This document shows positions 1-36,624 of a DNA stretch of 64,000 nt, piece after piece (positions within the stretch are counted from its first letter, which is position 1; every line of letters starts with the position of its first letter). A program made the translations under genes and the position numbers. Below the pieces are notes generated by a model. It did not search any database, was not told where the DNA came from, and saw only the letters and a list, made by a program, of their open reading frames with translations. Source of the DNA: Nemertoderma westbladi (Eukaryota > Animalia > Xenacoelomorpha); NCBI GenBank assembly GCA_032718475.1, contig JAUCBJ010009108.1, positions 62,001 through 126,000 of the forward strand. Direction: 5' to 3'.

Positions 1-1360
1 CGAATGTTTCCCACGCTATACGAATACGTTACGAATGTTTTACGAGTGTTATACGAATGTTTACCGCAGGATTTTTATTTTTTTTATTATTTCGCTACAG
101 TTTACATAGTTTTAACAGTTTACAACTGTTAAAACGTGTCCATTTTATTTTATTTTTTTGAATATACTTGATATTCCGAATCGAATATGAAAGCCATTTT
201 CAATTTCCCCAATAAAATGTTCAGATGTTATTCAAGAGCACGCAATTTCAGACGTAAATCGTTATAGTTCTGATGATTTTATTATCTAGAATATTAATTT
301 CAAGCTTTTAATTAATCTTATTAATTATTATTGATAGTTTATTATTTTTTATGATATTTTATTATTATATTATTATATTATATTATTTTATTATTATATA
401 TTATTATTATTATTATATATATATTTTATTACTTATTATCGAAAAAAAAGCGAATTAATATTCTACAATATAGTAAAAAAAACATTGAAATTATGTTGAT
501 GCATCTCCTAAAATGTATGCCTTTGATGTATTTTGTCTGTAAGATTTTTTTACCATTAATAAGTGTAGGGCCTACTGTAGCAGTTACCGGTAATTAACTG
601 CTACAGTATATCAGTAGACTTTTTAATGGCGTTTTATAGCGAATTAAACAAATTCGACCTGTAGACCTAAGAAACTGTGTGAGAATATCACCATACACGT
701 ACATAAGTTTTAGAAAGTTTTTACGTTAAGCTACAAATGCTACCTTATAGTGAAATAATCCATCACCGCTCCATGAAAACAGTAAGTAAGACTGTTTTCA
801 CCAATCGAAATACAAACTATTTACAAATATCTCTTAGGTCTAATGGTGGGGCCTAAAATATAAAATAATCAATATCTAATTATTGCATACTTATTATTGC
901 AGGTACAGCGTAAATACAATCTATCATACATAAAAAATACAAATTTACCAATTAACTTTAGTGCATAAAATACAAAAAAAGAGCTTTCGGTTATCAAAAT
1001 GAACAAATAAAACAAATTAGAACAAATCAAAACAAATAATTTCAAAACTTTCAATAATCTTTTATATATTACAAATATACATAATAAAATTTCCAAATTA
1101 AATAAGTCCAATATAAACAAACATAATGCGCTAATAATTTCCAAATAAGTCTTAAAGTGTCCTCCTGACGATCTTAAAAGTTCGTCCTGCTGGTCTGGAT
1201 ATCTTCTCCTGAGCACTGATTGCTAACGGTAGGCTCGCAAGCCTTCCTTCTCTACCTCGCCCCTCCAAACCCAACATCCAAATATAATATCCAATATAAA
1301 TATCCAAATATAATATCCAATCGGTAGGCTCGCAAGCCTTCCTTCCTTCATCTTGCTCTC

Positions 1361-4300
1361 CTAATCCTTTGTCGATTTAGGTGGTGGTCGGGATCGAACT
1401 GGACTCGGACTTTGGCGTCGAACTGTTGGTGGTTCTAAAACACTAGGAAAGGTGACGACGGGAGTCTCACACATCCGTCGTGCGCTCAGTCCTCTAAATC
1501 CTCGTCCGATTCCAATCATTCGCTTTGTAGTATCGGACCGAGTCTCTACAACGCTAGGAGGGAGTCTAAGGGGTGGGACCGTTCCGTCCGCTGACACCTC
1601 GCTCTCTGACGTCGTCTGAATTCTCATAGGTTCTGGTAAAGCATATCCTGTCCCTCCGCGTGGTTCTCTAGGAAGGGAAACCGTGCCCCGAGTCATCCGG
1701 ATTTGCGACTTCGATGTCGTCCTCTCGGCGACATTTACTACCTTTTTTATTTCCTGTCCGGCCTTCTGGACTCTAAGTATACGAAGTTGCGGATCTTCCT
1801 GTGGGTGACGTGTCCTTTCGGCTAACGGTGTGGCCCTGAAGCCAGTCTCACGCAAAACGTCCGCCTCATCTAAGATACAAGAGATTACGTGTTTGTGATA
1901 AAATGCGCTCTTGTATGCCCAAGCTTTCGAATGCCAGGCTCCTCGATTCCGCTGTTCGACTCGCAATTTGTCGAATTCTCCGGCGGTAATCTTATTCACT
2001 ACAGTCTGAAGGTTCCATGTGTTCTTATTGTCGGGGTGTACCTGTAGAAAGTAGTCCCTACAACTTTAAATCCGCTATCCAACGGGTTCATCGTATTGAG
2101 GCATAGCTGACACATATCCTTCTTTCGACATGATGAGAGGGTTTACGGCCCAAAATCCCAAATGCGCTCTCATGGGGAAACGGCGCCGCTGTGTCAACAC
2201 ATGCTCGTCTGCTAGATTCTCCCAATGGTCGAATAGCTGTCTAACGATTTTAACTGACATATGCTCATAGGGAACGTCCCTAAGTTGGCACTCTGATGCC
2301 CTATGACCTTTAATATTGCAATACGTGCACTGCGCCATGAAACGCCAACAAGTGTAGAAAGTGTGTGAACGTTGATCCCCACACCAGTTGCACACTAAGT
2401 CTGGTAGAGATATGTGTTTCGCTCCACATTTCTATGCGTGGTGGCCAGTTGCCCCGCATCTGCCACAAATGGTGTTGGCAGGATACCAAACTCGCTCATA
2501 GATGAGGTCTCCGATGGGGCGAGCGCTACCGTCCACATGATAATTCTCATCATCCGGGTCAGTCGGTATGTTCGTCTCCGTAGGTTGTACACAAACCATG
2601 GCATCGCTTTTCTCTAACTCGCGTATCTCAGTTCGCGTCTTCCTCGGAAGCTTCTCTTCTATTTCTATGAGTTGCCGCAACGGTTCGTCTATTATCGCGG
2701 ACTCGGTCGGATCCACATCGTCATGATGGGCGGTAGGCTCGCGAGCCTTCCAGGATCCTTCCGGGTCTTTTAATTCCGCGTGGCGTTCCCCGTCGTAGGG
2801 TACTAACGTCAACATCGACGGTCTGTCGACTAAGCTTCCCGCGTGAGTGAGATAAACGTCCCTAAAAACGCTAAGTCCTGCTCACGTGAAAACTTCGTAG
2901 TGCGCATCGGTGTTATAAAAGGGTTGGAGAAATTGGCGGAATACATCAGTATGTGTCCTTCCTCCGTCGTAAATGGTATGTCCTTCACCGAGACATAACG
3001 GATGTCGCTTTAGAGTCCTAGACACTACATCGGCAATGAAGCAAACGTTCACCGAAGATTCTATCGCCAAATAGTATTGCAAGATTATTCGTGGAGGTGA
3101 GGTAATACAGTACACGCAACCTCGCCACTTTAACTGTGACTCGAACTCGTTTACGCCGGGGGTATCTCCCTCACCGTATACATCCGTGTATTTGCTCCTC
3201 TTACTCTCTTTATAATCCCAACTGAACATTAGGTATGAGATATAACCCGTTCCAGTTTTTAGCGTGTTATACTCCCTAAAATATCCTTGCTCAATAGCCC
3301 AAAGCAACAATGGTCTTGTATCCACGTATGGCGTAGGCAATCGATCCTCCTCCTCGGGCATTCCTGCGAAATCGCTAATGAGGTCATCCCATACACCGGA
3401 TCCGATCTTGACGATACCTTTATCAAGTACAACATCTCGCACGGCCTTTGGCAACATCCTAGCTTCTATGCTACAAGCCAGGTCCATGGATTTAACTATC
3501 CGTTTTATCATCGCGTGTCTTTGCGTCATTCCTTCCAGCATAGGCATCTTTCTATCGCTCCTCTATCGGCTGAAGGCATGTAACACTCCATCGGGTGCTC
3601 GAATTTGTATGGTCTTTGAAGTGAGGCTCTGCTGATGGCTTCCTCCTTCATTATCATAAAACATATAACCATTCTCCTGCAGAGATCGGCTTGTTGCGTC
3701 CTAATCGTCTAGTAAATCGTCAGTAGGGTTCCAAATTCTCCCTATGGACTTTTCATCGTCAAAACTAATAGGTTTTCCGGTTCAATTGGTCGCAATATCG
3801 GTGTCGGTTTCAAACGTGCCGACTCCGATCCATAATCGAATCGTTTTCGCTAAATATCCTCGCAAGATACAAGGTGCGATATCCATCCCCGCGCGATCCA
3901 CTTCCTTAAAGTCCGTAATATGTGGAAGTACGTTGCGTACGATTTTCTGAACTATTGTTCTATGAAACTCTGCCGCCTCTAACACATCACCAAAGCACAT
4001 CAAAACACACCAAAACACATCACATCGCCGATGGGAGGAAATGCAGGTTCGAAATGATCTCCGGGTGTTCAACTATAGGAATCTCGTAAGTTGTCTCCTC
4101 TCGGGTTGGTATGCTAATAGGAAAGCTGGTTGGTCTCGCGACTGGTACTACCGCTTTAGTAGGATGGGGATGAGGTTCTTGCGTCATCTCGACATGAGGT
4201 ATCTGTAGTCTCTGCGACAAACGCTGAGCAAAGGTGATACTATCGAAGAGTTCGGGTGTCATCTCCTTAGGTTCAGTTTGATCGTAGGATATCCAGTAAA

Positions 4301-5093
4301 ATGGTAGGCTTGCAAGCCTTCCGCCGAACTCCTCGATCTCGCCTTTCTCGTACGCTTTGTACGCCCTATAGAGGCTCAAAGCTTCCCGTTTCTCTTGTGT
4401 CGACTTATTAGACTCGTCCACTATCATACTATAGACGTCTGGTTCGACTAATTTGGGTTGGTTAACAATTTCGCCTGTGTTTGGTCCACTCATCTTAAAC
4501 GAATGGTACGGATTCGTCAAAGGGTATCCGCCTTCTTGGTAACACAGACTTTGGTGGTATGAACATCGTGCTAATATCGGCTCGGGGTTCTCCGAGTTCA
4601 AGCGCATAGGAATCGCGTTGTCTTGCTCACGCATACATCCTCCACATTTGTAAAACAGTTTATAAATGGAGAACGCGTCCTTTGTCTCTGGATCCACTCC
4701 TCGAGCACGTTTATAAAGATGCATTCCATCGAATTCATCCCTGGCTGCAGGCAAGGGTTCGCTCGCCGTCAAATATTGCAGCGTATGATATAATCGGCGT
4801 ATCTCCGTGTCTGGATCCTCGCAAATGTCACTGGCATCGCATAAAGCATCGTAGGGATACAACGCATTGAACTCTGCGCGTAACTCCTCCGCTCTTTTGT
4901 TATAAGCGTCCAATCGCTGTCGAGTAACATTCGGGTCCGCCTTGGATTTAGCGAGCTTGGCTGTACTCCTAGCCATACTCTCCACTCCAAACACGTTAAA
5001 GTTTTTGGCTCCATAATGATTAAACGGTGCCTGGTGCTCCTGTTCCTGCGTAAATCCCTGACGTAACTCCTTATAAATCTTCTCCGCCATCAT
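1361..5093 (-). pseudogene. Accessory ORF of the retrotransposon: Cys/His-rich N-terminus, DEDDy-type 3'-5' exonuclease, three Zn knuckles
   Basis: ORFs 3782-4072, 2882-3547, 2432-2815, 2075-2395 and 1361-1999 are all in one frame. Reading through stops gives YMFYDNEGG (ExoI), TIQIRAPDG, KIGSGVWDDL (ExoII), YVDTR, W..QYYLAIE (ExoIII-like), then CGRCGATGHHA*KC, CNWCGDQRSHTFYTC and CTYCNIKGHRASEC. ORF 4020-5093 joins via one inferred frameshift. Confidence 0.75.
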
Positions 5094-5130
5094 ATACGCG
5101 TATATATGGTTACATATCGTTACGTTTCTA

Positions 5131-5328
5131 CTAGAAGAAGCACAAAATAGAGGTTAGATGTGAGGAGACTTAGAGTTTGTCGGCTTTTGGCTCAACTTTG
5201 CTCTAAAACCCCTACCCATTTGCCTAATGACTTCGGGTTTCGCGTGATTTCGCACTGGCTCCTAATCCAAAAAATGTGCCGATAAAAACGAACTCCGGGT
5301 AAACTAGCCGCGAGTCTAAAATACTCAC
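5131..5328 (-). other. Predicted spliceosomal intron in the leader of the accessory ORF
   Basis: Minus strand: AG|GTGAGT donor at 5328; CTAAC branch site at 5157-5153; pyrimidine tract CTCTATTTTGTGCTTCTTC then TAG ending at 5131; ATG at 5093. Confidence 0.6.
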
Positions 5329-5694
5329 CTTTTAATTTCCCAAACTACATCCCAAAGAAAATAGTGCAGTCGAGAATTAATTTGGTCTAAGATAATAGTA
5401 GACACGACTAAGTAGAACAAGGCCGATTTTCTTTTCCAAAAAAATTTTATCGGTAGGCTCGCAAGCCTTCCATCCACTCTTGTCCTCCCCAATTTTAATT
5501 TTTATCTAGCTGTATTCTAGAATTCACATTCACTGGAGAATCATTTTTCTTAAATTTAAATCCAACCAAATGGATTTGTCTAATAATTTTTGAAAATTGT
5601 CTCACTTGTGGGTTCCAAGTGGAATTCCATTCCTACTGTACACACAATCCCGCTCCTATGTGATACATTAGGGTACTACCCTCCGCCTCCATGT

Positions 5695-6660
5695 TCACAT
5701 ATAAAGACAATGGAATTCGCTTTCCCAAACGCCGCCTCTCCACAGACTGTCGGAAATGTTAAAGTTCCAAACAATACGGTGAGGTCGTAGTTTCTCGGAA
5801 ATCTGGTTTTGGTCCAACTTCTTTAAAGCTCTGGTGATTTCATTCCATGCATCCACAAAGTTAGTCGCTTGGTCGCAATAAATGGATTTGACCAATCCAC
5901 GTCTAGCGATAAATCGCCGTAAGGCTAGGATAAAGGCGTTGGTGGTCAAGTCTGTCACACGCTCAATATGGAGAGCTCTGCTGGCCATGCAAGTGAAGAT
6001 CAATCCCCAACGTTTTACCTGTACCCTTCCGCGTTTCACGATTATGGGTCCAAAACAGTCTATCCCTTAGTCTCAGTGAAAGGGGGTCTAAAAGCCTGTA
6101 ATCTCGCTAGTGGTAGTTCACTCATTTCTTGGTGTCCTATCCTCGCGTGCACCTTCTTACAAATCATACAGTTCCGTTTTACCGAACTCAATGCCTTGCT
6201 AGGCCTAATCAGTACAAACCTCGAGCGTAAGTGTGATAGACAGTGGTGCCTACCTACGTGTTTGAGTCGTACATGTGCATCCAGTATCATAGCACGCTGT
6301 AACTCATGGTGTTGCGGTATGATGATAGGATACCTAAAGTCAAGTGCAAAGTCAATGTTTTGGAGTCTGGACTTGTGACAAAGTAAGCCCCTATAGATTA
6401 TCGGACTCCAACTCAAAATCGGTGAAGACTTGATCTGTTTACCCTGATTGAACGCTGTGAACTCTCGTGCGAAATATCGCAATTGATAATGATGAATAAT
6501 ATCAACTTCACAAAGACCAACTTCCCCTAAGGTAAGTCTTCTAGGAAAGTCGCGTTTGCCTCTGGCATATTTTCTCAAACGTTTGAGCCATGCTAACTTG
6601 CGGCATGCGTCAGTCCATGATCTAGTTAGGTTTACTATCCTGTCAACGTAAGTGTTAGTG
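5695..6660 (-). pseudogene. pol: BEL/Pao integrase (HHCC plus core), C-terminally truncated
   Basis: HVRLKHVG...CMIC, MSELPLARL, FTCMASRALHIE, RRFIARRG, DQATNF, GGVWE; similarity is lost after about 5715. Confidence 0.88.
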
Positions 6661-7064
6661 ACGTCTTCAGGTAAGGTATAGTCGAAATGTGGATACTTGT
6701 TCGGACTTGGTAGGCCCACGGGCCTTCCGGTGAGTGTCTCCCTTTGTACAATAGGTTTGTCTGAGTCCTCAAGTAATTTAATCTCCACGGTCTTATCTTT
6801 ACCGTCCACACTCAGTGAATTGACTGGCAGTAACGGTTTCACGCTTTCGTCCTTAGTCACACATTTACTCGTAGACGGTAAATCAAGTATTTTCCTTGAG
6901 CGGAGTGTGATTGCTGTGGCCACACCTTCGTCCAAAGAAGTCAAATTTGGTAAGTTGTCAATCGCTAATGGGTGTTTACTAGTCCGCTCCAATGGATTCA
7001 TTGCGTCCTTGCAGTACACGTCGTTTCTTTCCAATGGGTCATCTAATGGAAAGTCTAGTAGACA

Positions 7065-7410
7065 CTCTGGTGAGGCGTCCGCGAACAGTCTGGTGAGACG
7101 TCTGGTGAGACATAGCGCGGAACTTCCGGCGAAATGTCCTGTCGCCTGTCCCAAAGAAAGTCTGGCATTGCTTCTGTCAGAAAGTCTGGTCGAAAGTCTA
7201 GTGGACAGTCTGTCGAGATGTCTGGTGGAAAGTCTGGCGAGACGTCCGGTAGACAATCTGACGAGAGTTCCATAAAACAGTCTGGCGAATAATCCGGAGA
7301 ACAATCTGGTGTCATTTCTGGCGAATAATCTGGCGAGACATCTGGTGAACAATCCGGCGAAACGTCTGGTGAAATGTCTGGTCGAGAGTCTGGTGAGATG
7401 TCTGGCGTAA
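7065..7410 (-). repeat. 12-bp coding minisatellite (SPDx tetrapeptides) inside pol
   Basis: Degenerate TCTGGTGAGACA-like units; translation ...SPDVSPDCSPDVSPDYSPE... Confidence 0.85.
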
Positions 7411-7649
7411 TGTCAGGTCTAACGTCCAGGTCATCAGATTTTGTCCGTCCTTGTTTCCTCTTGACCTTAGCATTGGCTTTCGCTTTGGACTTGACAACAG
7501 TGTCGATTTTTATCTCGGCACCTTCCGGTATGGTATTAGTTGTCGCGTCGAATAATGGTGGCCATTCGTCTGATGGACGTTGTAGGAAATCGGGTCCTCT
7601 AAACCAAAAGGAGTTATTGTCCGGTCTACAAAAGTCAATAGGTGACATC

Positions 7650-9400
7650 CCCCGTGACGCGATGTCAGCTGGGTTCAGCTTCCCTGGACAGTGACACCAA
7701 TCTTGTTTGAGCGACCGGTCTAATATTTCAGCCCGTTTGTTGGCTACGAAAGTCTTGAACTTGAATGTTTCGTTGTTTATGTATCAAAGTACCAACGTCG
7801 CATCCGTCCAATATGTGACCTTCAAGTTAGCCTCCAGCTCGCGTTGAACTAGACTGACAATATCGGTGGATATCGTCCTGGCTTGCAGCTCTCCACGAGG
7901 TACAGTCATATACTTCAATGGCATTGTTCTAGCTCTTGAAGTAACGAGAGACACTTCATAGCTGTCCAATGTCACTTGTTGTCTAAGGTATAATGTAACC
8001 CCCAGTCCATCCTTACTAGCGTCACTAAAGCTGTGAAGCTCCAAATCGGCAGGAAAGGTGGTCTGCAAAGGAAAGTATACCCTCGGCATGGTATAGTCTT
8101 GTAAGAACATCAGTTGGGCTTCCCAGTCCCTCCATTGCTCAGCTAACTTTTCTGGGATGGGGTCATCCCATTCCAGTCCGGCTTGCCAAATGCTGCGGAG
8201 TATGATCCTGGCATGTAGGATCACTGGACTAATGAAACACAATGGGTCATACAATCGACTCATGGTCGATAAGCAAGTCCTCTTAGTGAGAGGTCTAATC
8301 TGTTCGTTGGACCTTACACGTACCCTAAAGTTGTCGGTGTTCGGGTCCCAACTAAGTCCTAATACCTTGGTCGTAGGTAGAGGTTCTAGGTCTAAGTCCA
8401 AGTCTCCTCCACTGCGATCAGTCGGGTCGAATGAGTTCACTAATTTGGGTTCATTGGAAGCGAACTTCGTGAGGTGAAATCCACCCTCAGCGAGACAATC
8501 TTGGAGTTGGTGTGCTACGGTCGTAGCGCGCTCCAGAGTGTCACAACTCTTGAGGCCGTCATCCACGTAGAAGTCTCGTTCCACTGTCCGAGCTACCTCT
8601 GGGTCGAATTGGTCTTGTCTGTCTAATGCAGTTTGCTTCAAGGCATACATGGTGCAGTTGGGGCTGTCCCTGGCTCCGAAAACTCTTACCTGCATTTGGT
8701 AAGTTTCTGGCGGAAGTTCTAAATTTCCGTCCGGGTACCAAAGAAACCTTAAACTGTCCCTGTCCCGCTCCAAAGCCTTAACCTGGTGAAACATAGCCTC
8801 TACATCACAGGTGAAAGCCACTTTGCATTGTCTAAAACGCATTAGGACTCCCATGAGGTAATTATTCATATTCGGCCCGTCCATCAGTTCGCTGTTCATA
8901 GAAATCCCTTGGTAAAGCGCAGCGCAGTCGTTGCCTTGCCAGGTTTGTCCGGGTGTCGAACAAAATGATGTGGCAGGTAATATGTCTCATCTGTGGTTAC
9001 CTCTGGATTTAACATCCTAATGGCGTATCCCTTTTGGAGATACGTCTGAAGTTGCGCATTGTATTGCATATGGGCCATCTCATCACGCAACAATCGCTGC
9101 CTTATTGATTTGAGTCGCCTCAAAGCAAGCGGGTAGTTGTTAACGAGCTTAGGTTGTCCATTGCGCCACAACATGCCAACTTCGTAGTGGCCATTCGCGG
9201 TCTGGCGAATGGTATCTCTCATAATATTTAATGACCGTTTTTCCTGTTCTGACATAGCGGTCTCGTAACTACCGGGTTCTGCTGAGTCCTGTTCTAACCA
9301 TTTAATGGTCCGTTCAGTCAGCAGTCGGTCAAGCACTGCTTGCACTGCGCCATGGTCCTCGTCCACATCTTCGTCCGCTGCAGTGGCTAGTGTCAATGTG
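7650..9400 (-). pseudogene. pol: BEL/Pao reverse transcriptase and RNase H
   Basis: YYLPHH, DGPN, DVEAMFHQV, LRFLW, VFGARDSP, FYVDD, VLGLSWD, YDPL, WDDPIP, FSDAS, YWTDA; frameshift near 8900. Confidence 0.92.
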
Positions 9401-9430
9401 TCTGGTAGGCTCGCAAGCCTTCCGGTGTCA

Positions 9431-10498
9431 CTAGTCGGCGTCGAAAAATGTGAGCGGTTTGAAAACCTTCTGATCTGTCGGTAGGCTCGCAAGCCTTCCA
9501 AGATCAACAACCGGTGTCGAAGCCTGGTGGATGGGGTCAATGACCTTCGGATTTTTCGGTAGGCTCGCAAGCCTTCCAAAACCCTCATTCATAGAGTCAT
9601 CCACAGCAACAACCCTTTGGTCTTCAGTAGTCAATACAACCTGGTTTACTGCAAGTAGTTGTAAGTCAGAGGTCCGTGTAGTCGTGTCCAGATCAGTTAC
9701 GTCAGTATCGGTTACGTCAGTGTTAGCGACGCAAGTCTGTCGTAGTGCAGTCTGTACAATTGAAACACAGGAGTGTGGAGGAGAATTATCTATCGTAGTA
9801 GTCAATAAACTACACGTACTCAAAACATCGTCCTCCTGGTCACTTACCTCTAGTGAATGCACTGGTGCTCTAGTGTACCAACCTATGGGAGTTCTACTTG
9901 CGTAGGGGTTGCCCGCTGTAATAACAGATGGGCGTGTCTCCCATACCTGATGTAAGTTAAACTGGTCTGTCCCAATCAACATCGCGATTGAGCGATAGTT
10001 AACAGGACATTCCGGTATTCCAAGGTGTCGGAAATACTTTCGATCTTCCGGCGATTGCTCTGGCACAGGGCGGAGCAAGTTACTAAAGTCCTTCGTGGCT
10101 GCAAAGGTCAAATTTCTTACCGGAAGTAATGAGCGCTCCTCCTTGCTGTGTTCCGCTTTGGAAAGAAGAGTGTCTAAGGTTAATTTTACTCTCGTCACAG
10201 GAATCGCTCTCTTACCATGCATGCTGCTTGCAGTATACTGAGCAGTCTTACCTTTACTCATGTCCGTAACTACGTCGGCTACTTGTTCGTCGACGTAACT
10301 ATGCGATGACGCAGAGTCTAAGATAGCGCATATACGCTTGCTCCCTCGGGTTCCGGTAATCTTTATAGGAATCACGCTAAACCCTTTCAATTGGTTCTGT
10401 GTGAGGAGTGTTATCGATGGTTGTTCCTCCCCCGCATGCACGTAAAAGTGTCGTCTTCCTCCTCGTCCTCGTCCGATGATCCGGATTGATCCATACAA
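9431..10498 (-). pseudogene. pol: BEL/Pao aspartic protease region
   Basis: AILDSASSHSYV (D-S/T-G-like active site), IAMLIGTD, RTPIGW. Confidence 0.8.
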
Positions 10499-12801
10499 TC
10501 AGTATAGAATGTACGAATCTCGCGCGGTGCACGCTCCTTATAAAGTGCGTTGCATCTAGCCGCTTTATCTGGATTCTCTCGTCGAAAGCGTTTGGTTGGA
10601 GTATGACTATTTGTGTGGAGTAACGCGTCGTGGTTACGTCCACATAGAGGACATGTATCGTCGCTCGGGCAATCCTTCCGGACGTGTCCAGGCTTGGTAC
10701 ATCTCCAACAAGAATCCAACGATCGAATTTGGAGTCTTCTTTCTTCAACTTCCAACTCTCTAAAAGCGCGACATCCACGTAGTTTATGTCCGCTGTGGTT
10801 TCTGCCGGTCCGCTCGCAATATGAGCATCCCACAAAGTCCGTCGGTAACTGTTGTCGTGGCGGCTGCTTGGTGCTGATAGGCGTCAGAACTTTAGAAGTT
10901 TCCATTGGGGTAGCATAAGTTACGGCTTTCGCGTTCGTTGGAAATGGTTTGGTCCGATTCGGCGCAGCACTAGCTATTCCTTCTGCCGCTATATGGTGAT
11001 CAGTGTAGTTTGATCGAGTCTCAACCACAGCCTCTCGCGAAATCAGTTGGTAGACGTCGGTAAGCTTTAATAGCCCGCCGGCCTCTTCACGCTGATACTC
11101 AATACGTCGCCATTCTCATCGTAATCGATGATAGAGTCGACCGATTATCCTAATTAGAACTGTCGGTGCGTTAGCGTACTCAAGTTGTCCAATGGACCGT
11201 AAAGTCCCTATAGCGTTCTTAATTTCGTCCGCGAGTCGTAGAAGATCGATCGGTTTCGAAATGCTTCCTCCTCTACAGAGGTCTTCGATAATAGATTTAG
11301 CCATGGCTACGTTGCCGCCGTAAAGCGAATACAAATGGTCGTACGCCAACTCAAAGGCATTCGGAACTCCAATAAAGGTTTCCGCTAATCGTTTCGGCTC
11401 ACCAGACAGTACCTGGAGCAAGTAGTTAAACTTCTCCATCGAGGTGAACGCACACTTAGCGATCTGGGACTCTACGTAGTCTACCAGCGTATGCCAGTGC
11501 TTTGCGTTGCCAGAGAACTTCTGTGGTTGTTGTGCCGGTAATCCATGTCTGGCCGCAAACTTCGCAATCTCGCTAACTAAATCCAACTGTCCACATCCCT
11601 GTTCGGTTATGTTGTCCAGTCGTTCCCTTCCGCGCATCGTCCGTCGGTAAGAAATATTAACGGGATCTTCTTCTCGATGTTTCGGAGTCTGTCTAGTCTC
11701 CTGTTCTCTCCTTGGTGGTCGATGTTGTCTAGGTTGTTCCAACTCCACACTGGTTCGTGATCGATCCGACGGTTGCGCTTCGAGTCGCTCTTCGAGTTGA
11801 GCTAGTCGGTCCGCCATCTCAGTGAACTGTTTGGCGCTAATCGCTTCCGCTGGTTGCAACGTGGGTTTCTGCAGGGGTGTTTCTCGTGGAGGATTGTCGA
11901 TGTATGGGTTCGTCGATCTCTCCTCTCGTTTGTAATCAGCTGCCGCTCTAGTACGGAATATTTCCTGTTCCGTCGACTGCATATCGCTGGATGAATCGCT
12001 GTCGTCAGGATACGGTGGTTGGCGGGTTCGCGCACGGCGTATTACTCTTGGTCGAGTTCGTTGTGGTCTGGGATCTACGGCTCTCCGTTGTTCGGTAGGC
12101 TCGCAAGCCTTCCACGAAGTCGTAGGTCTCGTTGAACTCAGTTCGATCCTGTGGGTACTACCCACATCCGTCGTCCTTCGTTGTTAGGTAGGCTCGCAAG
12201 CCTTCCACGAAGTCGTAGGTCTCGATAAACATTGGGTGAGGCTGAGGGGTCTAGTAAAAACATCAGAGTTAAGTGCTACTGTAGGTTTATAAATGACTGG
12301 GTTCACGCGGCACGTTACAGGTTTAACTTGTAATGGTTTACTCACCTGTTTTATCGTCATAAACGCAGGTTCGTCTCTCTCTACAAGTAAACTACGGCTT
12401 ACAGTAGGTGGACTACTTATCTTACTTGCGAGAATCAGCAATGAAGTCGCTCGTGGCTGCGGAATCGATTCCGACATAACAAACCTATTACCTTGCACGG
12501 GTGATATTTCTTTCAGTTTTGCAACTATAAGCGGTTTTACTGGAGTCGTGGGTTTGAGCATAGGAATAACTTGGGGAAAACGTTGACAGTAATCCTCGAC
12601 GAACTCCTCTCCTCAATCTATCGCTCCCACACTTCCTTCCTCGATTCGCTTCTGAATTCCGCGATATCGAGTCTCCATGCAATCCAGGGGAGACAAGTCA
12701 TGTCCAGCTCGAGACCTTATAGATCTATCTCTCGCGTCGAGTTCGAGGTCCTCTTGCGCAGCAGCAGAAATGACCCCCTCGCTAATTGCGCATTTGTGCA
12801 T
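10411..12801 (-). pseudogene. gag: BEL/Pao gag (capsid-like region plus triple Zn finger)
   Basis: ORFs 12613-12801, 12184-12561, 11116-12165 and 10411-11028 share one frame, split by in-frame stops. Motifs PQKFSGNAKHW...EKFNYLLQVLSGEP...LYSLYG and CSYC..H..C / CWRCTKPGHVRKDC / CPLCGRNHDALLH. Confidence 0.88.
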
Positions 12802-13349
12802 AAGCAGTAACCAAGGCGACTGCTCGCGATGTTAACTCGATATTAGTAGCCCTGTATGCCCCTATGACTAAATATGTTGAAATTAGTTCAAAGGATTAAG
12901 AAAAATAGCCTTGAGGCTATAATAGAAATAGGTCCGTTGCAGAGGAATGGGATTAGTAGAGAGGAATGCATGTATATTACGAGGTGCCTGGATACAGCCA
13001 AGGGATCAAAGCGATGCCAGTTATGGTATCATCAGAGGAGGGTCGCTGGACCATTAACCTTGGGTTATTTATGGATTTGATGCAGTCAAGGCCGCACTGG
13101 GTTATTAGTGAGTCATCGAAGGGGCCGCTAACAGAGGAGCGTAGGATTACGTGGATTGCGTAGGATTACTAGTGAGGCATTGAAGGGGCCACTAAGGACA
13201 ATGGAAATGGTTAGCAATGGCTCGTTCACTGTAAATGCGGCTTGCGGGAGCGATGACAAGGGGAGGGGGTCGCCGATGAGTGTAGTTGATGGGTTGGCGA
13301 GATGAAACTTCGTGGTGAGATGGTTCCAATAATGACGTCATTTAGCAAT

Positions 13350-13560
13350 GGTAAGTAATACAAATAATTAAAACTAAAAGTAGAAAACAATATATAAAGT
13401 AAAATTAAGTACAAATAAATAAAGTAAAAATAAATACAAATAATTAATTAAAATTAAACACAAATAAATAAAGTAAAAATAAATACAAATAATTAATTTA
13501 AATTGAATACAAATAAATAAATTAAAATGAAATTCAAATAAATAAGTATTAATAAATAAA
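13350..13560. repeat. AT-rich low-complexity tandem repeat
   Basis: Repeated AAATAAATAAAGTAAAAATAAATACAAATAATT-like units. Confidence 0.7.
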
Positions 13561-13588
13561 AGAGCCGCAGTGTCACTTATGACACCCT

Positions 13589-13876
13589 TTAGTCATCTTT
13601 GCGACAGTTAGACCTCACTGATGACCATTGCGTATCAGGGCGCTAATCAGTCTGATTAATTAGGATAATCAATTAAACCCTAATTAGGAGTCATAAGACA
13701 CCTATTTGGGTTTAATTGTACTAATTAATTGATGACACCTGTCAGTTAGGGTCTAATTAGCCTAATTAGGTGTCACCCAGACAGTCTGGTGCCAATGACA
13801 CCCATAGGGTGATAATAGGGTGTCATAAGACACCCAATGGGTGTCAGTGAGGTCTAACTGTCACAAAGAGGACTAA
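13589..13876. mobile_element. MITE/foldback element
   Basis: TTAGTCATCTTTGCGACAGTTAGACCTCACTGA is inverted to TCAGTGAGGTCTAACTGTCACAAAGAGGACTAA; internal GACACCC/GGGTGTC subrepeats. Confidence 0.65.
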
Positions 13877-15304
13877 GACTCTACTACTATGAAAGTCAGA
13901 TAAAACCTTTTTCAATTAGCTACTGGGATGGGGGATTCAATGACAAGTAGGAGGATGTGACAATGGACGGATCTCATTTATCATGTGTGAAGGCCTCACA
14001 AGTGAGACTATGGGAATCCGACAGGGGTATAACATCTGGGAGAGTACGAGGAGTTGAGTGGTGAGGGGTGCAACATCCAGGAAGTGTGGGGAGCGAGTCG
14101 AGAAGGAGTATGACTCCTATGGGACTAATGAGACGTGTGAGAAGTGAGGAAATTGGGGCCCGGGGGATCAGATCCAACGGTACCGAATTTAAAATTGTGT
14201 AAGGAAGAGGCGATTGTCTAAATAGAGACACCGCATGACTTGGTGCGCCTTTGCTTGCAAGAGTGCCAAGGGTGGGTAGTAAGATCAGACCCAGTGGGAC
14301 CAGATTGGGAGACTGGTCCTGGAGAAGATAGTCCCACCCCACATCCGATACTAGATCGGATTCCCTGGAGTGGAGCACACTTTGCGGTAGATGCTTTCTT
14401 CTAACCGGGAAGATAGCATGGGGGGTGTTAGCGGATGCATTCCACTAAGCACTTCCAACCAATAAAATGGGGGGGGGGGGGGGCAATTTATCAAGTCGGC
14501 AACCGAGGTATATCTAATAAGGCATACCAACCAAAGGGATGAAGCAATAGGAAAATCCAAGAAGTGGACTAACAAACCACCCCGGTGAGTCAAGGCCAAC
14601 AAGTCAAAGGGGGGCAGGTTTATGAGGTGATGTAGTAAGGCAACCAATTGGAGGGCAGCACCTGTTAGATTTAGCTGTTTCGACCATGACAGGCCAATGA
14701 GATGTGTTAGCCTTACAGGAAATGTATATTTTCACCCTATATATTAACGGTCACGTGCATTGTAAATCAGCTGGAAATTTATCCAGTATCTATATTATAA
14801 GGTGAACTATTTTCACCATATGCCGTATATCAATACTGCTGACCATGCTGTAATCATTATACTGGTAAACTGTGCTATTCTATTTAGAGTATTAACAAAA
14901 TCTATGATCAGATAACTCTAGCATTTACAGTTTTATCAAGTCTACGGCCAGTCAGTATTATCCAGCAGTGACGCGTAGAAACATCACTAAGACGAACAGT
15001 CGGGATCCCAGGCTAACCAGGGTCCCATCACAATTGTTCCAATTTTTTGAGCTCCGTAGTCATTATCCAATTCTCCAAAAAGACTAACATAACGGCCTTC
15101 CTAGTTTATTTAAAATTTGTTTCACTGGCATACTGTCGTGTCTTGTATCAACCAATCACTTGGTTGTAATGAAAAAAAAGTAAAACTTTGTAACTTTACC
15201 AATTTCCTCCATAATGAAAATGTTAATTAGCTACAAAACATCCGGTCACCTCAATACTGAATATACCAACAAGGAACAAACTTGTATAAGTGTCGAACAC
15301 ATGT

Positions 15305-15779
15305 TGGCACATACCATTATAATCTTAAGGCTATAAGGCATATTGTTTGTAAAGTAAATTAATTCGAAATTAACAGGTTAATTTCTATATTAAACTATAC
15401 ATACTAAGTAATGTAGGTAGGACATAATTACGTGGCTCCTAATATGTGTCAATTATGTTCCAATTTTGTTTCAACTAAACAGAGACATACTAGTGGCAGC
15501 ACGTGCGCCAATTAGCGCACATGGTATCAGCAACACGATGTTAAACTAATCCTTCTGTTGTTGTCGGATTGGTTTTTATTACCTTATTTAAATATGGGAG
15601 ATATGACGTTTGCTAAGGTTAATTGTCACTTTCCCAATAGGAATACTGTATGTCACTTGCCCAATGATTCAGTTGCCCAATAAAAAGAGACAGGGGGGAA
15701 ACTCGACGCAAAACCCGCCTTGGCGAATTAATATCCCGCCTCAATGTTGAATTCTCAATTTAGGGAAAGGAGCAGCTTA
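15305..15779 (+). repeat. 475-bp direct repeat, left copy, flanking the RTE LINE
   Basis: Near-identical to 17762-18236, with only a few substitutions or indels. Confidence 0.93.
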
Positions 15780-15838
15780 AGAAAGGAGCCCCCCCCCCGC
15801 TTTTGTTTCCATGCAATCCCAGGGTGTTCGGACACTTC

Positions 15839-17762
15839 TGAAAGAAAGAGTCCCGACTCAAACAGACTACAGCGGCCAAGAATGCAGTTAAGGCTGCATC
15901 TAGGTCCCTGAACAGGCAGTACTCTGTTAATCTACAGGAGCTAATAAACCAACAGGTTGATGCCATCAATGATGCTGACGACAGCAGGCAATCATCCCAG
16001 ACATGAAAATCAATCAATCTGCTTACTGGGCGGAAAAGCCAACCAACCATCAAGGTTAAGGCTGAATCACCAGCCGATCGCCTCAATGGTTGGAAAGCCC
16101 ACTTTGAAAAGCTCCTCAATAATGACAGGGTATTGATTGCCTGATAACTTTATAGAAGTAAAAGTGTCTGAGTCTGTACTCCCAGATATTCCCATTGGCG
16201 ATATCTCCTTTGCAGAAGTGAAGGCTGCTGCAAAGAGCATGAAGACCAATCGTGCCAGTGGAGTAGATGGTGTTCCCCCTGAGGTCTTTAAAATACCTGA
16301 GTGTTTAAAGCTCATCTATCCCATCATAGTAGACATGTACCGAACAACAAGAGTCCCACAAGAAATGAAAACAAATAAGTTGGTGCCAGTTCCCAAGAAG
16401 GGCAACCTAACACTCTATGGTTCTTTTCGGGGAATCTCATTGATCTCGATTGCTGCAAAGCTATACAATAGGATTCTATTAAATCGCATCAGGGATCCCA
16501 TTGAGAGACTGCTCCGTGGAAATCAGAATGGGTTCCGTAAAGGTCGTGGAACCATGGAGCCCATTTTGGCACTTAGAAGGATAATTGAAGAATTATCAAA
16601 AAAGAAAGACAGGCATCTGGCTGTTATCTTTGTTGACTTCTTCAAGGCCTTTGATTCAGTCTCTCGCTCACGTATGTTCAGCATACTTTCATTATATGGG
16701 ATTCCTGATGAAATTATTGCAGCAATCAGATCAGTATACGATGGTTCGACAACATTTGTGTCTACTGTTGACGGTGACACAGAACCATTTGAAGTGTTAT
16801 GGGGCGTATTCTTGTTCATTATTGTGGTTGACTATGTTCTACGCATGTCCTTAGATCATCATAATGATGATGGGGTGATGATAACTCTACCTACTGGCTC
16901 CAGAAGTCGAGGAAATCCTGCCAAGTACCTAACTGATCTAGACTTTGCTGATGACTTAGGAGTACTCTCAGAATCATTAGAGGGAGCCCAACGGCTCCTC
17001 ATCTCATTAGAACATGCTGCTCCTAGTGTTGGTCTTTTTATTAACTCCAGAAATACCAAAATTCTGACCGTTAACTTTGAAAGTCCTCAGCAAGTCTCTG
17101 ATCGGATGAGCATAAGCTCAAAGGATGGTATGCTTGAGCATGTGGACGACTTCTGTTACCTGGGTTCATGGATCCGGAAGTCAGGTGAGGACCTTCGAAT
17201 ATGTAAGGGAAAGGCATGGGCAGCCTTGAATAGGCTTTCCAGGATTTGGAAGTCACCGAGAATTAATCGGAAACTTAAGGTCCGATTATTTAGAGCAGCA
17301 GTAGTTCCAGTACTCCTCTACGGGAGTCCATGCTGGGCTCTAACTGCTGAGGACACCAAATCTCTGGATGGCACATTCACAAGAATGCTACGCCGGGTTC
17401 ATTGTGTCAAGTACAATGCACACATCTCCAACCAGACACTATTTAACATTGGAGGTGTCTCATTGGTTCCCCCAAGCTTGACACTAGAACAAAATCGCCT
17501 CCGCTTTGCAGGACATTGCTTTCGCCGTGAGGACCAGCCAGTGCATAATCTTGTATTTGGCAGCCTCATGGAGTGAATAAGCATGGTGGACAGCCCATGA
17601 CTTTCTTGAGACGCATCTTAAAGGAACCTGGCCTTAAAGATGCGGATGATCTAGCAAATGTCATGGGTGATAGGGAGTTGTGGCGGTGCAATTTTGTTGA
17701 CAAGCCGGCACAGCATTCTTAAAAATGCAGCTGCAATGCAGCATGCCGATCCTAGTAGTAGT
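15839..17762 (+). mobile_element. 5'-truncated RTE-like non-LTR retrotransposon
   Basis: RT ORF 16137-17576, no endonuclease domain, short (TAG)n tail; second copy at 58335-59972. Confidence 0.88.
16137..17721 (+). pseudogene. LINE reverse transcriptase, defective
   Basis: ASGVDG, PVPKKG, FRGISL, QNGFRKGR, FVDFFKAFDSV, DLDFADD, FCYLGS, LLYGSPCW, FAGHCFR. The QGD motif is missing and a frameshift lies near 17555; the ancestral frame runs to about 17721. Confidence 0.88.
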
Positions 17763-18236
17763 GGCACATACCATTATAATTTTAAGGCTATAAGGCATAT
17801 TGTTTGTAAAGTAAATTAATTCGAAATTAACAGGTTAATTTCTATATTAAACTATACATACATAGTATTGTAGGTAGGACACAATTACGTGGCTCCTAAT
17901 ATGTGTCAATTATGTTCCAATTTTGTTTCAACTAAACAGAGACATACTAGTGGCAGCACGTGCGCCAATTAGCGCACATGGTATCAGCAACACGATGTTA
18001 AACTAATCCTTCTGTTGTTGTCGGATTGGTTTTTATTACCTTATTTAAATATGGGAGATATGACGTTTGCTAAGGTTAATTGTCACTTTCCCAATAGGAA
18101 TACTGTATGTCACTTGCCCAATGATTCAGTTGCCCAATAAAAAGAGACAGGGGGGAAACTCGACGCAAAACCCGCCTTGGCGAATTAATATCCCGCCTCA
18201 ATGTTAAATTCTCAATTTAGGGAAAGGAGCAGCTTA
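17762..18236 (+). repeat. 475-bp direct repeat, right copy
   Basis: Matches 15305-15779. Confidence 0.93.
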
Positions 18237-34195: not shown

Positions 34196-34336
34196 AAAGA
34201 TAGTTTGACCATCAATCGATTTAACGGACCGGTAGATTAATGTAGTAGTCAAACACGTTATTAATTATTCGCGTTTTGAGTTGCGATATCTTGTTTCTTA
34301 AAACGTAAACATTTTTAGTATCAATAAAAATAGTCA

Positions 34337-36624
34337 ATGGCAAATATATTTAGATGTTCAGATCTTCCAGATTGCCGAGCACTCAAGGATAATATAACTA
34401 GCGGTTATTGGTCGCGGAAACTTTGTGCAATGTTTAAGACATTCGACAAGTTGATAAAATTATCAATGCATGGAGTTAGTAAGAACTTTAGAAAGACGGT
34501 ATTTTTAGATCGTTTCCTATTATTGCTTACAAATCAACGGTTGTTTAATTCAAATGACGTAGTGGATATGGCTATTGTTGAAAGTTACTACAAAGAAGAC
34601 GTTCCAGGATGGAAGGACTCCAAGTTACCAGATGCTACAGATATCCCAAAGAAAAGGGGAAGAAGGAAACGTGAGACTGCGCTAAATACTCCTCCTACTA
34701 AGAAAATATGCACATCTGTTGCGAATAGTTCCAATTCGAATAATTCTGCTCCTCCGGTTGAACACTTCGAGCTGATCAATAGAAGAACGGCTCAACAACA
34801 TTATCAGAATGTGTATCTAGACCAACATCAACGAAACTTCTTGCTTCGTTATCGACAGCTGCAAATGGCCGGGCTACAAGAAAACTCTATACAGCAAACG
34901 CTTCATGTTCCTCATCAACAGCTGATATCGCAGCAAGGGCCACTTCAACATTATGAAATCCCTCAGCCTCAGCCACATATTTTCCGACCACAGCATGGCC
35001 TGCAACCGACCCAACATCAGCCCCAACAAGTAATAGGCCTATTCCATACCAAAACCATCATTTTCAAAAGTGTAATCTGTCAGATAGTTTTCACGAGCCT
35101 TTACAAGGCCAAAGACTTACACATTTCAATCAACAATCCCCAAGTTCTTTGACACAACGACAAATGCCACAAGCGCAATTTCCACAACCACAATTTCCAC
35201 AACCACAATCGCTACAGCCACAATTGCCACAACCACAACAATCGCTACAGCCACAATTTCCACAACCACAATCGCTACAGCCACAATTGCCACAACCACA
35301 ACAATCGCTACAGCCACAATTGCCACAACCACAATCGCTACAACTACAATTTACACCATCGTTGTGGGAAGATCTGAATCCTTATTCGGCATTTTCTATA
35401 AGAGATAATATGTCCGTAATTAACATACAAGGGTTGGAGAAAGAAGATGTCACACCAAAGGAGTCGGAGAATAATTCAATCAATGAAGCAGCATGCATCA
35501 AGGTTGATGAAGAAGGTCATCATCGTGAAGGCGAGCAAAGAAGAAGACAAAAACTTAATACTGAACCAGTTACGACATGTAGTAACTCAATCTTAGAAAC
35601 AGTTAGCATTAAAAAAGAATTACCTAATGATATCATGGATTTCTTTCACGATGTATCAAATAATGAAATTGATGTTGATGTACTTATTCAGTATTCCTTA
35701 GAGGAAAAAGAGTTAGTTGATGAAAATATATTTGAAATTGAACATAAACTAGAGGAAGTTAGAGAAACTAGAGTTAAAGAAGAAAGTATTGGCGAGGCTG
35801 CAAATTCCAATGTGTGTAGTCCTGTGGGCTTACATGTTGAGAATTATCTTATTGATTCAACAATGGCCAATGAAGGTAACACTGGTGTTGTTAATAGTGA
35901 TGATAAATATCGTGATGATAACGAAGTCGATATTATATATGAATATAGGCCTATATCAAGTGAAGAAGAAGACGTGAAACCTAAACTAACTTCTATGTAT
36001 AGTGGTATCAATAATAGCGTAACAGATGACATTGGTGTTGATGGAGTTAATTGTCAAGAAAAAATCAATAGTATTCATACACCCAATTATCTACCGAATG
36101 TGTCAGATACAAACTTAGAAACTGATACTAAGAGGAGGAGCAAACAGATTGAAAAGCGTTATATGAAAGGAACAACGGGTCGCCGTCTAAACGAAATTAA
36201 GTATAAAATTGACGAAATTGATGGGAAATTAGATAGTTTATTGTGCGAAGTTATTTACGATAGGAAAAATGAAACAAAACAGGGTGATAATCAGAATAAG
36301 GAAATGTCATTTTCAGAAGGCAGTTCTAATATTTTGGCCACAAAATGGCCCCTCACTTTACAGAAAATCGACAAGCCATCTGCGAAGAGTTATCGTTGTT
36401 GCGCTCCACCTGATCGTAATGGAATGACTCTGGAGAAATCAACATGTAAAACGGAACAAACCATCATAAATGCTGACAAATTTTGTCCATGGCCATCCAG
36501 TCTACAAATAATAGATTTTCCCGAAGCAATAAAAAATGTTAAATATCAAGAGTCTCCGTTCCATAGACTACGTTCGAATCCTTGTTTAATCCCGTTAATA
36601 GTCGACTGTGTGTGTAATGTGTAA
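34337..36624 (+). CDS. Intronless ~760-aa Gln/Pro-rich and acidic protein of unknown function, with one apparent frameshift near 35028
   Basis: Two overlapping long ORFs in AT-rich DNA; the second frame is already open from about 35030. NLS-like PKKRGRRKR and PQPQSLQ repeats; no family recognised. Confidence 0.6.

Follow-up and report, generated by a model that had tools for sequence, protein, structure and literature searches.

Eleven copies of a self-complementary 20-nt motif along a BEL/Pao-type retrotransposon of Nemertoderma westbladi: a candidate RNA packaging and dimerisation signal

The replication of BEL/Pao retrotransposons has been called poorly understood (PMC8742986). Belpaoviridae are 4.2–10 kb in length with LTRs of 0.2–1.2 kb (PMC8742986; PMC3118150, excerpt), and neither PMC8742986 nor the available excerpt of PMC3118150 mentions a dispersed repeated signal. 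Packaging and dimerisation signals of retroelements are described near the 5' end and not along the coding region, and Ty1 RNA dimers are driven by palindromes, PAL1 and PAL2, a pair in the 5' UTR whose self-complementary RNA can pair within or between molecules (PMC6844567, excerpt). The UGCG loop of RSV psi stem-loop C, a single-copy structure, is bound by an NC knuckle; the same study, which disputes its packaging role, reports that neither Gag specificity nor packaging depended on the loop (PMC5035970, excerpt). In RNA viruses, packaging signals are dispersed along the genome: ssRNA viruses and HBV carry many short stem-loops of variable affinity within coding sequence, with one common motif and a small shared feature (PMC6281560, excerpt). 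At the DNA level, plant VANDAL DNA transposons carry family-specific, non-palindromic VANC motifs of 8–9 bp in non-coding DNA, which multiply by tandem duplication, act over whole elements and adjoin an element-coded accessory gene (PMC5735166, excerpt).

The 64-kb stretch of DNA analysed here (the window) holds a BEL/Pao-type retrotransposon of at least 12 kb, a decayed member of a high-copy family (Table 1). It resembles Belpaoviridae in having a gag with DUF1759 and knuckles followed by PR-RT-RH-IN, and the minus-strand order of DUF1759, zf-CCHC, LDSAS, YVDD, PF05380 and Integrase_H2C2 is that of BEL/Pao. RT-RNase H returned 182 homologues at E≤1e-20, PF05380 being present in all 120 that were listed, and the best matches were 43–44% identical to animal BEL/Pao proteins. 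The proteins thus uphold the assignment made in a first-pass annotation of this DNA. Unlike Belpaoviridae, the element exceeds 10 kb. No LTRs were found in this copy, and no terminal repeat pair in the 64-kb window. Past about 12,760 contig depth is that of single-copy DNA, so that the 5' end of this copy looks truncated; some of the integrase also seems to be missing near 5,720, and no convincing primer-binding site was found in the element. No search made its third gene out to be env-like; it is instead a knuckle-bearing orphan.

Table 1. Features of the element and copies of the 20-nt motif (window coordinates)
Feature	Position	Strand	Details and basis
AT-rich, high-copy 3' part of element	780..1227	-	contig depth
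Motif, main form, non-coding, 3' of extra gene	1228..1247	-	motif scan
Motif, main form, non-coding	1323..1342	-	26/27 nt (with flanks) common to 5452 copy, 4.1 kb away
Extra (orphan) gene, ~1,240 codons, downstream of pol	1361..5100	-	frame change near 4,000, seven in-frame stops
Three CCHC-type knuckle motifs, extra gene	2288..2467	-	zf-CCHC match below Pfam's cut-off
Motif, CGCG centre, in extra gene, WKAREPT	2732..2751	-	motif scan and translation
Motif, UGCA centre, in extra gene, GRLASLP	4303..4322	-	diverged sister contig has CGCG at equivalent site
Motif, main form, non-coding, pol/extra-gene interval	5452..5471	-	motif scan
pol, broken by stops and frame changes	5700..10498	-	domain search, homologues
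Integrase (H2C2, core), truncated near 5,720	in pol	-	
Motif, C-G at pair 8/13, CGUG centre, RNase H-integrase linker, GRPVGLP, family state	6709..6728	-	motif scan, contigs
12-nt tandem repeat in pol	7,060-7,430	-	
Protease-like (LDSAS), RT (YVDD), RNase H region (PF05380)	within 5700..10498	-	
Motif, protease-RT linker, GRLASLP	9404..9423	-	motif scan
Motif, protease-RT linker, GRLASLP, local duplicate of 9558	9480..9499	-	motif scan, flanks
Motif, protease-RT linker, GRLASLP	9558..9577	-	motif scan
gag frame: DUF1759, zinc knuckles near 10,600-10,830, two in-frame stops	10411..12612	-	domain search, translation
Motif, N-terminal unaligned part of gag frame, WKACEPT, local duplicate of 12187	12094..12113	-	motif scan
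Motif, N-terminal unaligned part of gag frame, WKACEPT	12187..12206	-	motif scan

The element carries eleven copies of GGAAGGC-N6-GCCTACC, all on the minus strand, which is the sense strand for the extra gene as well as for gag and pol, with none elsewhere in the 64 kb; all eleven read GGA...ACC on that strand, and the scan bore out every coordinate and the single orientation given in the first-pass annotation. Ten places in the window matched at ≤3 mismatches (eight exactly, those at 2732 and 4303 with one mismatch each), whereas 100 dinucleotide shuffles gave a mean of 0.00 matches and a maximum of 0, and relaxing the scan to ≤6 mismatches on both strands of the whole window added the 6709 copy (four mismatches) and two junk matches (7228 and 59913). 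Fifteen of the 20 columns are invariant: each 7-nt arm is constant throughout, as is the A/A pair (3/18). The loop reads UGCG with a U-A closing pair in 8/11 copies and CGCG, UGCA and CGUG once each. The 2732 and 4303 variants do change only the loop, as had been reported, but the 6709 variant is not the simple stem swap then described: it departs from the main form at positions 8, 9, 11 and 13, and its loop is therefore CGUG and not UGCG. A single orientation would also be expected, without any function, from copying through RNA or from local duplication. Several known identities were tried and dropped: p53, heat-shock and NF-kB sites and the histone stem-loop by inspection against their consensus motifs, an integrase-end mimic by the 6709 form, which breaks it, internal polypurine primers by purine runs that directly precede only 2/11 copies (1228 and 1323), and a tRNA origin by the absence of any tRNA from the 64-kb window.

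Eight of the copies lie in coding frames, where five give GRLASLP-type peptides and three WKAxEPT (the 2732 copy, previously read as WKACEPT, translates as WKAREPT), and the wobble positions of the arms are unchanged throughout. Because two reading frames are used and three copies are non-coding, it is the nucleotides and not a peptide that are kept, in agreement with the earlier interpretation. No motif peptide occurs among the 120 listed pol homologues (34–46% identity), and the motif is thus not a general BEL/Pao need. The six gag-pol copies avoid conserved domains, being overlapped by 0–6 of 120 homologues, against a baseline in which 34% of the span has ≤5 of 120. Grouped post hoc into seven clusters, the copies are rather evenly spaced with a smallest gap of 1,149 nt (P 0.008 for smallest gap, 0.024 for CV), although this may mirror only the spacing of the linkers.

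Such placement could also arise without function, if a short palindrome were easily copied by RT template switching or gene conversion and survived where harmless. In keeping with this, some copies are local tandem duplicates, as previously noted (flank identity 19/30 and 25/30), the 1323 and 5452 copies share the long stretch given in Table 1, the motif lacks stop codons in all three sense frames and is confined to tolerant regions, and formal tests of conservation and covariation were not significant. Against it, identity breaks off sharply where the 20 nt end (flanks match at a mean of 8.5/30 over 55 copy pairs), no other sequence of at least 11 nt occurs three or more times in the element once the tandem linker is set aside, and the four changes of the 6709 copy are all central, all compatible with pairing and fixed in the family. 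Reverse transcription, moreover, tends to delete direct repeats, at rates given for repeats of at least 50 nt (PMC3187697, excerpt). We consider a functionless repeat decidedly unlikely. Sharp borders and terminal inverted arms might instead mark a very small insertion element in its own right, or the footprint of a transposon, lodged by chance in this retrotransposon, but the flanks share neither a target-site duplication nor a target sequence, and the motif occurs in one orientation only and is absent from the other ~52 kb, so that this highly improbable origin is largely refuted.

Comparison with related contigs likewise weighs against a functionless repeat. Contigs of sister subfamilies keep the motif at equivalent sites while their flanks have changed in three cases among 12 listed of 67 rows, which bears out persistence in diverged subfamilies; in one of them (X4), 18/20 motif letters match compared to 8/17 in the flank (counted by hand; Fisher 0.01), a comparison conditional on the motif match. 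At 6709, contig sets X1 and X2 vary at 0/20 motif places versus 10/161 others, a difference that is not significant (P 0.60), and the variant is the fixed state of the family. Sets X4 and X5, the latter possibly an RNA run of another organism, contributed 0 contigs over 6630–6810, though one X5 contig over 6313–6805 carries a 21-letter gap. Viral contigs gave 0 exact motif matches and no relatives, and five single matches in GC-rich metagenome contigs without retroelement similarity were taken as chance. Three pieces of the motif had 0 matches in nine supplementary files of PMC3118150, a weak negative since the element FASTA is possibly incomplete there, and we found no description of the repeated motif in the published literature searched.

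Structure prediction reproduced the hairpin proposed in the first-pass annotation, with a GG/CC base, an A/A mismatch, a 5-bp stem and a four-base loop, as ((.(((((....))))).)) at -7.6 kcal/mol (z -2.3). The energy is the same on the opposite strand (-7.6 for both), which counts against a sense-strand RNA reading. Calling the hairpin covarying was an overstatement: a single pair (8/13) changed in one copy, 138/500 shuffles reach the same level, and two transitions at a Watson-Crick pair are self-compensating. A UNCG-type tetraloop is U-N-C-G, best with a C-G closing pair. The eleven copies do not establish such a loop as the conserved feature, position 2 (G) being its only invariant base. An Rfam search of 500–14,000 returned three matches at E 1.4–4.8, below the gathering score and none on a motif copy.

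The earlier description missed the self-complementarity of the central 14 nt, which on the sense strand includes one or two G-U pairs; adjacent copies, or copies on two RNAs, are therefore predicted to pair mutually over 18/20 positions. The predicted self-duplex reaches -30.7 kcal/mol in sense versus -22.9 in antisense for the main form, and -32.4 versus -28.9 for the 6709 form. Neighbouring copies are predicted to pair with a probability of 0.97–0.99 in all three multi-copy clusters, and the four single copies to form their own stem with a probability of 0.95–1.00. The single changes in the 2732 and 4303 copies turn the central 14 nt into a perfect palindrome. Where the core departs from perfect symmetry, it does so in both cases by a sense-strand G-U, a tolerance (two events) that leans only weakly to RNA over a DNA dyad.

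A double-stranded DNA dyad would consist of GGWAGGC half-sites separated by a spacer of 6 bp, to which the orphan protein or a host factor would bind as a dimer. Such binding would protect active copies from silencing over the whole element, like that of the VANC proteins, which bind the VANDAL DNA motif and remove methylation. Consistent with this, the arms are invariant and the spacer variable, the motif is family-specific, locally duplicated and evenly spread, the element encodes a large orphan protein, and VANC motifs themselves spread by tandem duplication and work across whole elements (PMC5735166, excerpt). The element is also not CpG-depleted (observed/expected 1.07 versus 0.75 for 14,000–64,000 and 0.47 for a LINE piece), although the dead copy shows CpG decay; high CpG is perhaps only the sign of a young, fast-copying family. 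Unlike VANC motifs, 8/11 copies here are coding, and the orphan gene has no VANC homology. In addition, the GGA-left/GGT-right asymmetry never flips or symmetrises in 11/11 copies, and each of the four forms keeps a self-complementary spacer, something a DNA dyad could do without. We regard a DNA site as somewhat unlikely.

The orphan gene itself bears on which molecule is read. Its three knuckles are spaced C-x2-C-x4-H-x4-C, C-x2-C-x5-H-x4-C and C-x2-C-x4-H-x4-C, the first interrupted by a stop in this copy. Knuckle-coding stretches free of stops run over 2,078–2,431 in the extra gene and 10,414–11,115 in gag. CCHC knuckles of Gag-type proteins bind single-stranded nucleic acid, and they are the only recognisable parts of the orphan protein, which argues against a DNA dyad. 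No homologue was found in a search of 5.8 billion sequences, among 1.84 billion representatives, in the Atlas (first 377 aa) or in the PDB, and two single-sequence fold predictions had mean pLDDT of 32 and 33. The orphan protein (in a Rev/Rec-like role) or a host protein could also read the motif as an RNA signal for export, localisation, translation or small-RNA protection. In complex retroviruses, export and translation must be controlled where a gene lies downstream on a long unspliced RNA, and the same would apply to this element; the placement, orientation and spacing of the motif would suit these roles equally, and the invariant A/A mismatch resembles a protein-read feature. However, they leave the self-complementary centre unexplained, and the searches with the orphan gene found no export-type domain or homologue. 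A signal for one of these other RNA steps is unlikely.

We tentatively favour the reading that the motif is under selection as a multivalent RNA signal for packaging and dimerisation, bound by zinc-knuckle proteins that the element itself encodes. These proteins would contact the ~12-kb genomic RNA at many copies and so select it, and two genomic RNAs would be paired via the motif and then packed into a particle. Either Gag's knuckles or those of the orphan gene may recognise the loop or the A/A mismatch and may chaperone a switch from hairpin to duplex, while new copies, arising by short-patch template switching or local duplication, would persist only where proteins tolerate seven extra residues. 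In a more specific and doubtful version, the triple-knuckle orphan protein would have its own 20-nt RNA operator every ~1.2–2.7 kb, including gag and pol, and a switch from hairpin (monomer) to 20-bp duplex (dimer) would zip two genomic RNAs at seven places and not at one 5' site.

Such a packaging signal would resemble those of ssRNA viruses and HBV in its many short stem-loops with one common motif within coding sequence, but here the 20 nt are near-identical and self-complementary and lie in a retrotransposon. It would share self-complementary LTR-retrotransposon RNA with Ty1, except that eleven copies run from 12,206 to 1,228. The UGCG loop and CCHC knuckles recall RSV, but the stem of RSV stem-loop C is unrelated and the likeness is perhaps chance. 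A 20-nt signal present eleven times beside two candidate knuckle domains makes RNA choice and packing in BEL/Pao elements testable with short oligonucleotides. If the RNA reading is true, LTR retrotransposons join the viruses with dispersed packaging signals, and their genomes may dimerise at several points; if the DNA reading is true, an animal retrotransposon has a counterpart to the VANC anti-silencing of plants; and under either, the element rewrote coding linkers of its own so that they hold a cis signal.

The decay seen in this dead copy has a CpG signature: 11/19 A/T-ward changes fall in CpG context, where 26% are expected (P 0.004; 26 transition rows among 50 listed contig-comparison rows). 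The UGCA centre of the 4303 copy may be a simple case of it.

We searched the window for the 20-nt motif GGAAGGC-N6-GCCTACC and found 10 places matching it with at most three mismatches, eight of them exactly, compared to no match in any of 100 shuffled controls. Because a scan allowing up to six mismatches added the copy at 6709 and two junk matches, the motif has 11 copies, and the first-pass annotation was right to report eleven, in a single orientation and nowhere else in the window. Fifteen of the 20 columns never vary (the two 7-nt arms, the A/A pair of positions 3/18 and the G at position 10), with variable positions confined to the central six letters, and no other word of at least 11 nt occurs three times or more along the element, one tandem linker aside. 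The motif is a real feature, is specific to the element family within the window and is very likely under nucleotide-level selection. It had no match in Rfam, in viral contigs or in the supplements of PMC3118150 (long files perhaps covered in part), and five single metagenome matches were attributed to chance. Literature searches, in which few subscription papers or repeat-database entries were covered, listed no LTR retrotransposon whose coding region carries a near-identical hairpin many times over, and the motif is matched to no described system.

Coordinates, strands and readings of features in the window
Feature	Coordinates	Strand	Description
Motif copies, all 11	1,228-12,206	minus	starts 1228, 1323, 2732, 4303, 5452, 6709, 9404, 9480, 9558, 12094, 12187
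Motif, GRLASLP or GRPVGLP reading		minus	5 copies
Motif, WKAxEPT reading		minus	3 copies
Motif, non-coding		minus	3 copies
Orphan gene	1361-5100	minus	3' of pol; ~1,240 codons; three CCHC-type knuckle motifs
Perfect inverted repeats	574-612 and 773-799		element's 3' side; arms ~14 bp and ~10 bp; by eye
Tandem repeat	7060-7430		12-nt period; S-P-D-rich reading; RNase H-integrase linker; lengths vary among family contigs
MITE-like element	13589-13876		high-copy; 48-nt terminal inverted repeats
LINE piece	15305-18236		RT-coding (16137-17576); flanked by two 475-nt direct repeats, 98.7% alike
Open frames	34334-36624	plus	two, long, Q/P-rich, acidic

Judged by its proteins, the element is of BEL/Pao type: its minus strand carries, in the order typical of BEL/Pao, gag (DUF1759, zinc knuckles) followed by a protease-like region, RT, RNase H and integrase. 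Among the matches listed of 182, the closest share 43-44% identity, and the named taxa are cnidarians, echinoderms, molluscs, fishes, a tunicate and a ribbon worm, which makes an animal host likely. Its size and third gene are unusual, since the ICTV Belpaoviridae profile puts the length at 4.2-10 kb and lists an env-like gene as optional (PMC8742986). This orphan gene found no homologue in four database searches; its predicted folds were too poor for use, and the middle of its product is predicted to be strand-rich. It is a candidate new kind of BEL/Pao accessory gene; the accessible part of PMC3118150 names only env as an extra gene. The copy is dead, with at least 10 in-frame stops and several frame changes, and belongs to an abundant family, with summed contig depth (a depth sum, not a copy number) mostly 10,000-57,000 in the sequencing-derived contig sets X1 and X2, compared to ~20-45 in the single-copy stretch beyond ~12,760. 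Within the window we detected neither an LTR pair nor a PBS or a clear PPT, and the 5' end looks truncated. Loose contig ends near 5,720 suggest that part of the integrase is missing.

The six gag-pol copies are overlapped by 0-6 of 120 homologues, where 34% of the span has five or fewer; this is only suggestive of avoidance of conserved regions because the six form three clusters. The motif peptides are absent from all 120 homologues in any frame. Overall, the copies fall into seven clusters, defined post hoc, whose spacing of 1,149-2,772 nt is more regular than expected by chance (P=0.008 for the smallest gap, 0.024 for CV) in a test limited by linkers that are themselves spaced and by the apparent integrase loss. 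Both strands of the main, UGCG-centred form give GRLASL in one frame, with all four asymmetric positions (3, 9, 12 and 18) at third codon positions, hinting at an origin of the motif within a reading frame of pol. Flanks are unrelated between copies (mean 8.5/30 over 55 pairs), except for 12094/12187 (25/30) and 9480/9558 (19/30), supporting the local tandem duplication proposed earlier for some copies, and 1323/5452 (15/30), where 26 of 27 nt agree in and next to the motif; copies so appear to have spread both through duplication nearby and as short patches carried across kilobases. That this spread was neutral seems improbable to us. Reverse transcription tends to delete direct repeats, at rates given for longer repeats in the portion of PMC3187697 available, so retaining eleven copies is probably not free. 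The copies share no target-site duplication, and it is very improbable that the motif is itself a tiny insertion element.

Family contigs retain the motif, whose ends are involved in at least three of 67 contig rows, counted among the 12 listed. One contig of set X4 (depth 290) tracks the window to 4,285, continues with 17 unlike letters and then matches the 2732 form for 21 nt, placing a motif where 4303 lies; by hand, 18/20 motif letters agree versus 8/17 in the flank (Fisher 0.01, conditional on the match). In set X2, one contig carries a motif at the 9558-equivalent place with a 35-nt rather than 32-nt spacer, and in an X1 contig 31 nt separate two motifs, compared to 75 in the window's 3' pair; their depth of 49-64 corresponds to one or two genomic copies. 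Alignment of 144 X1 and 105 X2 contigs over 6630-6810 (none aligned from X4 or X5) shows the 6709 form to be the state of the family rather than damage in this one copy. Variation of at least 3% occurred there at 10 of 161 flank places versus 0 of 20 motif places, which is not significant (P=0.60). In the contig alignment that gave the three retained motifs, no variable motif place appeared among the 40 rows listed of ~1,670, too few to be informative. Copy number, placement and retention are direct observations.

The hairpin described in the first-pass annotation is recovered by prediction (-7.6 kcal/mol, equal on the opposite strand). Its proposed covariation is not, amounting to one pair in one copy, as reached by 138 of 500 shuffles. 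Pairs 9/12 (U-G, C-G or U-A) and 10/11 (G-C or G-U) stay pairing-compatible, which leaves the central 14 nt self-complementary on the sense strand in all four forms, whereas the antisense strand has A-C mismatches in the centre of the main form and 6709. Predicted self-duplex energies are -30.7 kcal/mol sense versus -22.9 antisense for the main form, and -32.4 versus -28.9 for 6709. In context, the four single copies are predicted to form their own stems (probability 0.95-1.00 for pairs 4-7), and neighbouring copies in all three multi-copy clusters to pair mutually (0.97-0.99). Of the copy's family-wide differences toward A/T, 11 of 19 fall in CpG context against 26% expected (26 transition rows among the 50 listed), and CpG decay may account for UGCA at 4303. 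The UGCG loop noted earlier seems to be a real family state, as do CGCG and CGUG. The A/A mismatch is never repaired, though in no setting is position 18 constrained, suggesting that something reads it.

Our tentative reading is a multivalent RNA signal: zinc knuckles of Gag or of the orphan protein would read the motif at many sites and so let the element choose, pair and pack its genomic RNA. PMC5035970 describes an NC knuckle in which the RSV psi UGCG loop stacks, but reports no effect of the loop on Gag specificity. Ty1 dimers need the PAL1/PAL2 palindromes of the 5' UTR (PMC6844567), and dispersed signals are in use among many RNA viruses (PMC6281560). An export or stability signal is an unlikely alternative use of such an RNA. 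The main rival, somewhat unlikely in our view, is a DNA dyad bound by an anti-silencing protein, as the accessible part of PMC5735166 has it for VANC/VANDAL. Invariant arms around a variable spacer would suit such a site, as would the element's CpG ratio of 1.07 (1200-12700), without CpG depletion, compared to 0.75 over 14,000-64,000 and 0.47 for the LINE piece; CpG bias is present among the copy's own changes despite this ratio. Against a dyad, the asymmetry is fixed, the spacer is self-complementary and the candidate orphan protein is knuckle-type. Elsewhere in the window, the two plus-strand open frames belong to no Pfam family and are perhaps a host exon.
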